A program made the position numbers and the translations under genes. Below are positions 14,149 to 22,616 of a stretch of 64,000 bases of DNA, in pieces. Source of the DNA: a virus. Every line of letters starts with the position of its first letter. Positions within the stretch are counted from its first letter, which is position 1. The notes beneath the pieces are model-generated. The model was given only the letters and a program-made list of their open reading frames with translations. It did not search any database and was not told the origin of the DNA. The DNA is taken from the IMG/VR virus record IMGVR_UViG_3300046694_000196, positions 62,344 to 126,343 of that record. One strand, written 5' to 3'.

Positions 14149-15207
14149 ATGATAAAGTATGACGCCGCCGTCCTCATCGGCAAGTTTTCACCGTTCCACA
14201 ACGGACACCTCCGAGTAGTCGAGGAGGCCCTCGCGGTCTCAGACTACGTCGTCCTGATAGTAGGCTCTGCCAACCGCCCCAGGAACACCTACGTCCCCTT
14301 CACTTTCCGAGAACGACTCGCGATCATCCGGGCCTCGCTGCCCGAGTACGCCCTCGAGCGCGTGGTCATCACTTCCTGTAACGACTACCGTTACAACGAC
14401 GCTCGCTGGATGGCGGGGGTCCAGAAGGCCGTGACTGACGCCCTGAAGGGCCTGACGTTCACCAACCGGGGCTTCAAGGACTACAACCACCGCATCGCCC
14501 TCGCGGGCATGTACAAGGACGGCACTTCCTACTACCTCAACAGCTTCCCGCAGTGGGACAACTCCATCGCGATCCGTCCCGAGGAGTACGCCGGAGAGGT
14601 CCTCTCCGCGACGAAGATTCGTCGACAGATATTCACGGGCGAGACCGGCTACGTTAACACGATGGCCCCCGCCGCGAAGTTCGTCATGGAGAGCATCATC
14701 GACTCGGTCTTCGAGGGCGAGTGGTCCAGGCTGCAGTCCGACTGGGCCTACGAGCAGAAGTACGAGTCACTCTGGGGCAAGGGCCCCCACGTCACGGTAG
14801 ACTCCGTGGTAGTCCAGGCCGGCCACGTCCTGCTCATCGAGCGGGGCAACGAGTACGGTCGCGGACTGCTGGCGATGCCGGGCGGCTTCCTCAACAGGCG
14901 CGAGAAGGTGATTGACGGCGCGGTCCGCGAGCTCCGCGAGGAGACCCGCCTCAAGGTGCCCGAGAAGGTCCTGCGCGGCTCCCTCAAGGACGTCAGGGTC
15001 TACGACGACCCTTACCGGTCCAACCGGTCACACATCATCACCCACGCGCACCTGTTCGAGCTCTCGAACGTCGGCGAGTTGCCGGCAGTCTACGGCTCCG
15101 ACGACGCCGCGAAGGCCCACTGGTACCCCATCAGCCTGGTCCAGGACATGGAACAGCTGTTCTTTGAAGACCACTATTCGATACTTGGGGATTTGTTAAG
15201 TCTTTGA
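14149..15207 (+). CDS. nadM: Bifunctional NMN adenylyltransferase / Nudix hydrolase (NadM-Nudix)
   Basis: GKFSPFHNGH (HxGH), SATKIR, Nudix box GGFLNRREKVIDGAVRELREET, GSDDAAKAHW. Confidence 0.92.
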   Translation: MIKYDAAVLIGKFSPFHNGHLRVVEEALAVSDYVVLIVGSANRPRNTYVPFTFRERLAIIRASLPEYALERVVITSCNDYRYNDARWMAGVQKAVTDALKGLTFTNRGFKDYNHRIALAGMYKDGTSYYLNSFPQWDNSIAIRPEEYAGEVLSATKIRRQIFTGETGYVNTMAPAAKFVMESIIDSVFEGEWSRLQSDWAYEQKYESLWGKGPHVTVDSVVVQAGHVLLIERGNEYGRGLLAMPGGFLNRREKVIDGAVRELREETRLKVPEKVLRGSLKDVRVYDDPYRSNRSHIITHAHLFELSNVGELPAVYGSDDAAKAHWYPISLVQDMEQLFFEDHYSILGDLLSL

Positions 15208-20140: not shown

Positions 20141-20171
20141 TTGACAAACCGGTCGGATCGTGGTATAAATA
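20141..20171 (+). promoter_or_regulatory. Dual early/late promoter for RNA cluster 1
   Basis: TTGACA-17-TATAAA overlapping TATAAATA (20164-20171). Confidence 0.75.
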
Positions 20172-20179
20172 TCACACGA

Positions 20180-20494
20180 TCAAGCGGGAAGCCGCTTGTC
20201 AACGAGAAATGACTCTCGACGCAGGTAGCCACAGGAAATATTATAGTGGTGAGGGGCGCCGGGAACGTACGCAGGGCCCGTCCTGGTACCGGAGACGTCC
20301 GGTCGCACAAACCAGGCATTTCTCGACTCTATACGCCTGCAGACCTCTCCGGACAGGAGAGTAGCTAACTCCGGGTCTAAGTGAAGCAAGAGACAACGCG
20401 TCATGTCTGGGTTCTACTCCCAGATGCTGATAACAGCGCGGCGCCATGCTGCCTTGTCTCCCTAGAACACGACGGTCTGCAGGCGTATAGAGTC
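20180..20494 (+). ncRNA. Putative structured ncRNA of about 315 nt with a 21-bp terminal inverted repeat domain
   Basis: CGAGAAATG(20203)/CATTTCTCG(20317) stem; perfect 21-bp IR 20325-20345/20474-20494; nested hairpins; no plausible ORF. Confidence 0.6.
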
Positions 20495-20496
20495 AA

Positions 20497-20578
20497 GCAC
20501 CCTTATCGTCCCCGCCTTCTAAGCGGTCGTTAACGACGTAGACGGAGTAGGCTGGTTCGAGTCCAGCAGGGTGCTCCA
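20497..20578 (+). ncRNA. D-arm-less tRNA-Arg(TCT)-like RNA
   Basis: Acceptor GCACCCT/AGGGTGC-T-CCA, loop CTTCTAA, T arm GCTGG-TTCGAGT-CCAGC; only 8 nt where the D arm should be. Confidence 0.75.
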
Positions 20579-20623
20579 CTATTTCCGCTGGTGAGACTGC
20601 CGCGTACGGGCAAGTCACCGGTC

Positions 20624-20745
20624 TCGGGGCATAGAGGCCGGCTGCAGAGGCAGTCGCTGGTGCGAGTCCAGCCCGTTAAGGAAACCATTTCTGATCGTGA
20701 CGGGGAGCGCGCTAACGCCCTCGTCGCCTTTGCGCAGCAGGTCGC
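20624..20745 (+). ncRNA. Possible permuted tRNA-like element (T arm, closed acceptor-like stem, D-like hairpin)
   Basis: GCTGG-TGCGAGT-CCAGC then CCGTTA...TGACGG stem. Confidence 0.35.
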
Positions 20746-22225: not shown

Positions 22226-22407
22226 AAGACACGTGGTTCACTATGAGGCCCGTGGGCGACGTCTTCATCGTCGAGTCACACGTCAGAAAGTTCTCGGCAT
22301 TCGAGAAATGTGAGACGACTTACAAGAACTACGTCGGTACTTTCGCGAACAGGCTAGAAGCAGCCGAGGCTATAGACGCAGTGAAGAAACGCCTCGGCAT
22401 CGGTTGA
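22222..22407 (+). CDS. Small hypothetical protein
   Basis: GTGA overlap. Confidence 0.45.
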   Translation: MKDTWFTMRPVGDVFIVESHVRKFSAFEKCETTYKNYVGTFANRLEAAEAIDAVKKRLGIG

Positions 22408-22441
22408 CGTCTCGGTGCTTTCTCGATAAATAAATTTCTAT

Positions 22442-22523
22442 GCACATGTATCCGCCGGGCTTGCGAAGCTCGAGTCAGGTAACTGGATGGAAGATATGGG
22501 TTCGAGTCCCATCATGTGCTCCA
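22442..22523 (+). ncRNA. D-arm-less tRNA-Arg(GCG)-like RNA
   Basis: GCACATG/CATGTGC-T-CCA; CGGGC-TTGCGAA-GCTCG; ATGGG-TTCGAGT-CCCAT; 7-nt TATCCGC linker instead of D arm. Confidence 0.75.
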
Positions 22524-22524
22524 T

Positions 22525-22616
22525 GCACCCGTATCCCGCTGCGCTTCGAACGCAGACAAAGGTAATCGGAAGTGGCCGCGAGGCTGATGCAGGTTCGAGT
22601 CCTGTCGGGTGCTCCA
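22525..22616 (+). ncRNA. D-arm-less tRNA-Arg(TCG)-like RNA
   Basis: GCACCCG/CGGGTGC-T-CCA; CTGCG-CTTCGAA-CGCAG; GCAGG-TTCGAGT-CCTGT; 7-nt TATCCCG linker. Confidence 0.75.

Follow-up and report, generated by a model that had tools for sequence, protein, structure and literature searches.

A phage-borne family of tRNA-Arg-like genes in which D-arm-like elements lie 3' of the anticodon arm

The stretch of phage DNA considered here (the window) comprises 64,000 nucleotides (nt), positions 62,344 to 126,343 of the IMG/VR record IMGVR_UViG_3300046694_000196, and is the second half of a 126-kb phage record that comes from a rhizosphere metagenome and is about 73% complete. Rhizobium phage RHph_I1_18 has a ribonucleotide reductase that shares 63% identity with the one of this phage. 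Within its tRNA arrays, behind promoter-like sites, sit three small genes, here called A (20497-20578), B and C (Table 1), which are members of two subtypes of one family, A with the anticodon UCU and the other two with GCG and UCG. Element A, the main subject of this report, is probably the gene for a working tRNA-Arg(UCU), reading codon AGA, with a rewired core, to judge from its sequence and those of its relatives.

Much of A is laid out as in any tRNA. The perfect acceptor stem, the U73 followed by CCA, the canonical T arm and the CUUCUAA loop that were pointed out in the first-pass annotation can all be read directly, and the combination of an arginine anticodon in a 7-nt loop, a 7-base-pair (bp) acceptor stem, a T arm and a discriminator plus CCA is that of the family as a whole. 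The anticodon stem has four Watson-Crick pairs (CCGC/GCGG) and an outer fifth position that is C.U. Between position 9 and the anticodon stem there is no D stem-loop such as a canonical cloverleaf has; the linker joining the acceptor and anticodon stems is only 7-8 nt long (UAUCGUC, with one further C in the longer count), and a further 23-24 nt follow the anticodon stem, in the order CGUUAAC-GACG-UAGACGGA-GUA-G. The first-pass annotation had the D arm missing from its normal position, and in that place there is indeed none; the arm has been relocated and not lost, the linker being one strand of a D-like helix whose partner, together with a bulge, lies 3' of the anticodon arm. The architecture is shared by the two RNAs at 22442-22616, as had been proposed, and about 190 relatives, among which compensatory changes are seen, bear out the view that these tRNA-Arg-like RNAs are a family and not products of decay.

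These relatives were collected by pattern searches, including two scans of IMG/VR whose patterns specified the T arm and the motif that follows the anticodon arm but neither the anticodon nor the linker. Each scan returned more than 100 contigs, and the family members found there all have an arginine anticodon except one with GAU. Altogether 189 distinct members from about 165 loci were parsed, with the anticodons UCU, ACG, UCG, CCU, GCG and CCG. The exceptions to arginine are two GAU (Ile) members, L036:190-271 (minus strand) and a copy in Streptomyces phage Yaboi (NC_048730, 74542-74621); the latter has GGU for GGA in its bulge, with no A after the GG, and a lower score of 52 bits. At L008:5533-5617 (linker UAUCGGA) the anticodon loop seemingly has 8 nt (UGUUCUAA), between CCUGU and ACAGG, and this could be a frameshift-type reader or a misparse. 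Of the 189 members, 140 encode CCA, and as discriminator 85 have G, 54 A, 49 U and one C; another tRNA gene lies within 300 nt of 135 of 186 members. Every search pattern required a GGUUCGANUCC-type T arm and the parser accepted only sequences with UA behind the acceptor stem; the family extends beyond what the patterns caught, as is seen from the T loop UUCAAAU in phage Bas94.

The distribution of the family is phage-only. Cultured carriers include Xanthomonas phage XacN1, Mesorhizobium phage Cp1R7A-A1, Microbacterium phage Zooman, Stenotrophomonas phage SOVA965, Agrobacterium phage Atu_ph04, Limnohabitans phage DC31, Pseudomonas phages PAK_P2 and phiPsa397, Streptomyces BE-type phages and the E. 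coli phages Bas93, Bas94, 1-6af and FH3; Bas93 and Bas94 have the A subtype (PQ850617, 59419-59500). Rhizobium phage RHph_I1_18 (MN988519) has two copies, at 15119-15199 (minus strand) and 87047-87128; the first is a rewired tRNA-Arg(ACG) that stands without annotation in a tRNA array, flanked by tRNA-Phe (tag 034) and tRNA-Ile (tag 036), and locus tag 035 is missing exactly there. A single pattern, tried on 185,579 prokaryote species genomes, matched 11 times; four of these matches, on three contigs of metagenome-assembled genomes, parse as members, and they fit either prophages or phage DNA that was binned with such genomes.

The inner D-like helix, H_D1, is seen most clearly when positions are anchored on sequence landmarks and not on pairing, with the linker numbered backwards from where the anticodon stem begins and the partner strand backwards from the start of the motif UA(A/G)NNGG. 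Linker position -4 then pairs with motif position -1 in 189 of 189 members, as C-G in 186 and with compensatory changes in all three others, and linker -3 pairs with motif -2 in every member as well (GC 107, CG 67, AT 12, TA 3; shuffled mean 93). A MAFFT alignment of 140 members at 90% identity or less, alignment A1, gives the same picture, its columns 13 and 42 holding GC in 83, CG in 46, AU in 8, UA in 2 and another combination in one. Pairing in A1 reaches 99.7% for the acceptor stem, 96.1% for the anticodon stem and 99.6% for the T stem, with changes on both sides in all seven acceptor pairs and all five anticodon-stem pairs, and the covariation score of the whole structure is 0.861, as against 0.205 for shuffled sequences and at most 0.156 when the partners are slid. 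The helix reads CGUC/GACG in A, CGG/CCG, CGC/GCG, CUC/GAG or CAG/CUG in relatives, CUUC/GAAG in Bas94 and CC/GG in B and C. Two other registers were rejected: one in which the linker CC would pair with the bulge's own GG (UCC/GGA), where columns 13 and 49 are unpaired in 89 of 140 members, and one in which the A of GGA would pair with the linker, which was no better than shuffled.

An outer helix, H_D2, between U8-A9-N and the bases that come next after the motif, is clear in some subtypes, where AGC/GCU is replaced by the compensatory ACA/UGU, AGA/UCU and AGU/ACU. It is UAU/GUA in A and its ten closest relatives, and each of the ten A-subtype members has GUA right behind GG(A/C). The B/C subtype has an extra pair of its own between the last linker base and the second base past the anticodon stem, formed in 50 of 58 members (C-G 38, G-C 8, A-U 2, U-G 1, U-A 1). 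Homologues of A, B and C are also present in a related uncultured phage (L003, L004), with acceptor, anticodon and T stems that are altered yet paired. The acceptor stem of the B homologue is wholly changed in both L003 and L004 with its pairing kept, and the anticodon stem of C, CUGCG/CGCAG, has become GCACG/CGUGC in L003.

The bulge, which carries the motif UA(A/G)NNGGA 3' of the anticodon arm, is 7-8 nt long in 185 of 189 members and has an A after the GG in 183; that of A, UAGACGGA, recurs in four other members. The third base of the bulge and the base immediately 5' of the T stem covary, the combinations being A:U in 174, G:C in 11 and G:G in 4, with G:U and A:C never seen and no exceptions among the 189 (AU 130, GC 7 and other 3 when counted in the alignment). 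Fisher's test gives p = 1.7e-15 on the non-redundant set, neighbouring positions show nothing of the kind, and a G at the third base is found in several unrelated subtypes. In canonical tRNAs the Levitt pair R15:Y48 follows this same A:U or G:C rule, and G15:G48 is a recognised variant. Since the third base keeps to the 15:48 rule, the motif is read as N13-A14-R15-N-N-G18-G19-A20 and the tail after it as the 44-48 region. Where additional hairpins occur, they stand precisely at the site of a variable arm, as with GGCC-GCGA-GGCU at 22574-22585 in C and with variable hairpins at the same site in L030, L056 and L098.

In the fold that we propose, the chain would descend directly from U8-A9 along one strand of the short helix to the anticodon stem and, past the anticodon arm, return as the GACG partner, put out the bulge UAGACGGA, pair GUA with U8-A9-U and pass into the T arm. 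The bulge would do the job of the D loop by offering A14 to U8, R15 to the position-48 analogue and G18-G19 to the T loop, and would also supply A20. By this geometry the strand 5' of the bulge would correspond to positions 10-13 and the linker to positions 22-25 followed by 26, and the D-like helix and the anticodon stem would form one arm of about 12 layers, roughly as long as a normal D/anticodon stack together with its core layers. An L-shaped fold is expected, since the bulge supplies A14, R15, G18-G19 and A20, and covariation and helix lengths suggest that the L could be kept with the connectivity 9 to 22, 44/45 to 10 and 20 to 46-48.

Table 1. Parts of element A, its two relatives in the window and the promoter-like sites before them
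Feature	Position	Strand	Remarks
A, acceptor stem, 5' strand GCACCCU	20497-20503	+	Perfect pairing with AGGGUGC 20568-20574
A, U8-A9-U, 5' strand of outer D-like helix H_D2	20504-20506	+	Partner GUA 20547-20549; U-A, A-U and U.G pairs
A, CGUC, 5' strand of inner D-like helix H_D1	20507-20510	+	Partner GACG 20535-20538
A, anticodon arm CCCGC-CUUCUAA-GCGGU	20511-20527	+	Loop 20516-20522; UCU 20518-20520
A, connector CGUUAAC	20528-20534	+	A subtype only (consensus CNUYAAN); kept in L003, L155, L162, L211, L141, Bas94 and Yaboi
A, GACG, 3' strand of H_D1	20535-20538	+	Putative geometric analogue of positions 10-13; directly 5' of bulge, as in 189/189 members
A, 8-nt bulge UAGACGGA	20539-20546	+	Proposed D-loop analogue (A14, G15, G18-G19, A20); family consensus UA(A/G)NNGGA
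A, GUA (3' strand of H_D2), then G20550	20547-20550	+	G20550 proposed position-48 analogue; G20541:G20550 is one of 4 G:G cases
A, T arm GCUGG-UUCGAGU-CCAGC	20551-20567	+	T stem 99.6% paired across family
A, acceptor 3' strand AGGGUGC, U73, encoded CCA	20568-20578	+	20568-20574, 20575 and 20576-20578; read directly
B, rewired tRNA-Arg(GCG)	22442-22523	+	Linker UAUCCGC; CC 22452-22453 pairs with GG 22478-22479; bulge UAACUGGA 22480-22487; anticodon 22463-22465
C, rewired tRNA-Arg(UCG)	22525-22616	+	Linker UAUCCCG; GG 22561-22562; bulge UAAUCGGA 22563-22570; anticodon 22546-22548
Promoter-like site TTGACA-17 nt-TATAAA(T), TGG before	20141-20170	+	Putative; upstream of the RNA cluster
Promoter-like site TTGACG-16 nt-ATAAAT	22404-22431	+	Putative; ends 10 nt before B

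Standard tools do not see this family. ARAGORN reports 24 tRNAs in the window, none of them A, B or C, and the Rfam tRNA model RF00005 (cut-off 29 bits) gives no match for A even at E values up to 10, while B and C reach 31.8 and 35.5 bits in sensitive mode only. The best Rfam match of A is tRNA-Sec (RF01852), at 28.3 bits against a cut-off of 47; a tRNA-Sec was rejected on this score, on acceptor and T helices of 7/5 rather than 8/5 or 9/4, and on an anticodon that is UCU and not UCA. A covariance model built for the family, R1, scores A, B and C at 63.4, 78.0 and 74.4 bits and the rest of the window at 32 bits or less, which puts the likeness far outside chance; all three are part of its seed alignment, and the independent evidence is therefore the covariation in their relatives. 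In five phage genomes R1 gives 52-81 bits for family members and at most 37 for ordinary tRNAs. Folds of minimum free energy of A, B and C as single sequences are neither significant nor tRNA-like (z -0.2 to -1.5), and a megablast search of the region against cultured phages found one irrelevant match. A search for related loci with the neighbouring YqeY-like ORF (open reading frame) found one distant locus, which was left aside, and a search of sequencing runs listed no RNA set with this DNA in it and only the metagenome that is its probable source.

Among 186 members, ARAGORN calls overlap only seven, three of which are correctly named, and most of the copies examined in cultured phages are unannotated, a few standing under the name of another tRNA. 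The homologue of A in Yaboi (NC_048730, 86686-86764) has the GenBank name tRNA-Val(aac); by its sequence it is best read as a rewired tRNA-Arg(UCU), the Val(aac) call taking the connector CGUUAAC for the anticodon loop.

A20 is the main determinant for bacterial arginyl-tRNA synthetase (ArgRS), along with C35, U or G36 and A, G or U73 (PMC9976931). By sequence, A holds the full set, with the A20 analogue at 20546, C35 at 20519, U36 at 20520 and U73 at 20575. No ArgRS gene (PF00750) was found in the 126-kb record, about 73% complete as noted above, and it is the host ArgRS that would charge A, by way of A20, C35 and U36. Element A would be expressed as part of a tRNA-array transcript and excised from it by RNase P and 3' processing; once arginylated, it would decode the phage's own arginine codons. 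The only cloverleaf tRNA-Arg in the record is a CCU one (51613-51689), and in the ORFs of this phage the arginine codons run, per 1000, at CGC 22, CGG 12, AGG 11, CGA 10, CGU 8 and AGA 5.5, so that A, B and C would be the phage's only own readers for five of the six, or about 58 per 1000 codons. The simplest account of the restriction to arginine is that all members descend from a single rearranged tRNA-Arg, whose anticodon could drift within the set that ArgRS accepts.

The phage also has two ORFs with matches to the RNA-ligase family PF09414, one at about 48359-48877 (ORF 47819-48913, 101 bits) and the other at about 55252-55674 (ORF 54931-56145, 27 bits), and these, together with the many tRNAs, hint at tRNA repair. 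A cloverleaf tRNA-Arg of the same anticodon is also present at 10 of 165 loci of the family. These loci and the two RNA-ligase-family ORFs would fit a possible escape from a host factor aimed at tRNA-Arg.

Several points weigh against the reading of A as a rewired, working tRNA-Arg. Its 15:48 analogue is the rarer G:G and the outer pair of its anticodon stem is C.U. Across the family the outer helix H_D2 is only partial, being paired in 42-73% of members according to position, with covariation to match (L-5:+1, 58% against 47% shuffled; L-7:+3, 73% against 48%). Conservation of the T arm and of the UA is partly built in, since the search required both, and the member sequences are related, which means that the counts are not of independent events. 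In A alone, moreover, CGUC (20507-20510) may pair with a second GACG (20541-20544) and so enclose both the anticodon hairpin and a hairpin GUCG-UUAA-CGAC, and with the acceptor and T stems enforced this arrangement has the lowest energy, -28.3 kcal/mol as against -25.4 for the family fold without H_D2. We nevertheless consider such a fold quite improbable. It is impossible in the nearest relatives (L211, L003, L155, L162 and Bas94), where only one partner segment exists and abuts the 5' side of the bulge, and it would bury a G of the conserved GG; furthermore UAGACGGA also occurs in L147, L174 and L328, whose linker CGG cannot pair with the bulge, and the second GACG therefore looks coincidental.

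The GUCG-UUAA-CGAC hairpin also figures in the first-pass annotation, and with an unpaired connector it would make A a truly D-armless tRNA of the mitochondrial type, which is the logic behind the tRNA-Val(aac) of Yaboi. It can be drawn in A and L211, and engineered D-armless tRNAs can function in E. coli (PMC11551756). It is not conserved, however, being absent from most relatives in the A subtype and impossible in L003, L155, L144 and L139, and in A it uses the GAC bases of the conserved helix, with which it would compete. The linker, which would be the unpaired connector of such a tRNA, is, moreover, paired in every member with compensatory changes, and the "AAC" connector varies (CGUUAAC, CGUUAAA, CAUCAAC, CUUUAAA) while the UCU loop is invariant. 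A tRNA of that type would also lack a D-loop analogue and have a weakened T loop, but A has the GG-A bulge and a canonical T loop, UUCGAGU; a D-armless A is thus very hard to credit. Even less can be said for a decaying pseudogene or a chance likeness to tRNA, an idea to which we give next to no weight: the standard finders do reject A, but about 190 distinct relatives keep all helices through changes on both sides, and the homologues in L003 and L004 have diverged in sequence and not in structure.

Less remote, if still unlikely, is a tRNA-shaped decoy or regulator that does not decode, and instead soaks up a host nuclease or other factor targeting tRNA-Arg, or binds ArgRS. Confinement of the family to phages speaks for it, as do the two RNA-ligase-family ORFs, which fit a conflict over tRNA damage, and the 10 of 165 loci, such as that of Microbacterium phage Zooman, where an ordinary tRNA-Arg with the same anticodon is present and the rewired gene is accordingly not a mere gap filler. 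A decoy, on the other hand, has no need for six arginine anticodons, a strict 7-nt loop with U33 and a purine at 37, an encoded CCA and an A20 all together; the anticodon varies among members while the rest is fixed, as it should in isoacceptors, and in this phage five of the six arginine codons have no phage-encoded reader other than the rewired genes.

Compared with a canonical tRNA-Arg (RF00005; for example the CCU tRNA at 51613-51689), the rewired RNAs share the 7-bp acceptor stem, U8-A9, the 5-bp anticodon stem with its 7-nt loop, the T arm GG-UUCGANU-CC, the discriminator and CCA, the D-loop-like motif A-R-N-N-G-G-A including A20, the 15:48-type covariation and variable-arm hairpins at the usual place. 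They differ in the order of the strands: the anticodon arm comes before both the D-loop analogue and the partner of the D-stem strand, the D-like helix encloses that arm, the D loop has become a bulge and there is no cloverleaf. Metazoan mitochondrial D-armless tRNAs such as tRNA-Ser(AGY) (PMC9427863; PMC7609411) likewise join the acceptor and anticodon stems by a short stretch with no D hairpin, but in the rewired RNAs this stretch is base-paired, the GG of a D-loop analogue and a canonical T loop are kept, whence an elbow contact is expected, and the setting is bacterial cytosolic translation. The tRNA-like structures of plant RNA viruses (that of turnip yellow mosaic virus for Val and that of brome mosaic virus for Tyr; PMC7749636, PMC10870377) also attain a tRNA shape by a non-standard topology and are recognised by synthetases, as is predicted here; those, however, are 3' ends of RNA genomes with pseudoknotted acceptors and do no decoding, whereas the rewired RNA is a free-standing gene with a normal acceptor and anticodon loop. 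The circularly permuted tRNA genes of Cyanidioschyzon merolae (PMC3978253) have the order of tRNA segments rearranged too, but there processing restores a normal tRNA, while here the mature RNA would stay rearranged, and only in the parts of the D arm.

The surroundings of the three genes hold further elements. A consensus promoter scan listed neither of the two putative promoter-like sites of Table 1, that at 20141 being skipped since its second hexamer ends in A. A stretch of about 130 nt that ends 2 nt before element A is closed by a perfect 21-bp inverted repeat (20326-20346 with 20475-20495), and right after element A there is a 106-nt RNA-like element (20582-20687) with a closing stem UUUCC/GGAAA, a T-arm-like hairpin and a CCA end, and with no anticodon loop. 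Elsewhere in the window, a tRNA-shaped RNA (52381-52463) comes right after tRNA-Gly(GCC). Its acceptor is ACCCGAG/CUCGGGU, its T arm is canonical and its end reads ACCA; it has no recognisable D or anticodon arm, is called by neither ARAGORN nor Rfam, and scores 32.3 bits with R1. Four tRNA-like stretches within tRNA arrays (60066-60144, 60354-60424, 60866-60945 and 61271-61349) have weak R1 scores of 17-25 bits and no ARAGORN call, some of them with unusual T loops (GUGCGAUAC, UUCAUGU). A tRNA with the anticodon CUA (63861-63934; Rfam 68 bits), which ARAGORN labels "Pyl", is of the amber-suppressor type.

We found no description of such rewired tRNAs in the full-text literature, subscription journals not covered. 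By the account of a 2024 paper (PMC11551756), all known bacterial tRNAs are cloverleaves and natural armless tRNAs are confined to mitochondria. These RNAs might be the first natural tRNAs outside mitochondria to translate without a cloverleaf, reaching the L shape by another topology and kept by phages of many host phyla as a way of hiding their arginine decoders from a host factor that reads the ordinary D arm or core of tRNA-Arg, be it a defence nuclease directed at tRNA or an enzyme of RNA quality control; as a whole this is a tentative proposal and, on present evidence, a doubtful one. With ARAGORN calls overlapping so few members, and with copies in cultured phages unannotated or misnamed, phage tRNA censuses and the codon-usage arguments built on them undercount arginine. 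For this phage, standard finding would miss three of its four arginine tRNAs, and the blind spot is a systematic one.

If A and its relatives are charged and used, the core of tRNA can be rewired in nature with its tertiary contacts retained. For those who engineer orthogonal tRNAs the design would be of use. The restriction of the family to arginine and to phages raises a testable question of host-phage conflict over tRNA-Arg, and among the carriers Bas93 and Bas94 infect E. coli K-12.
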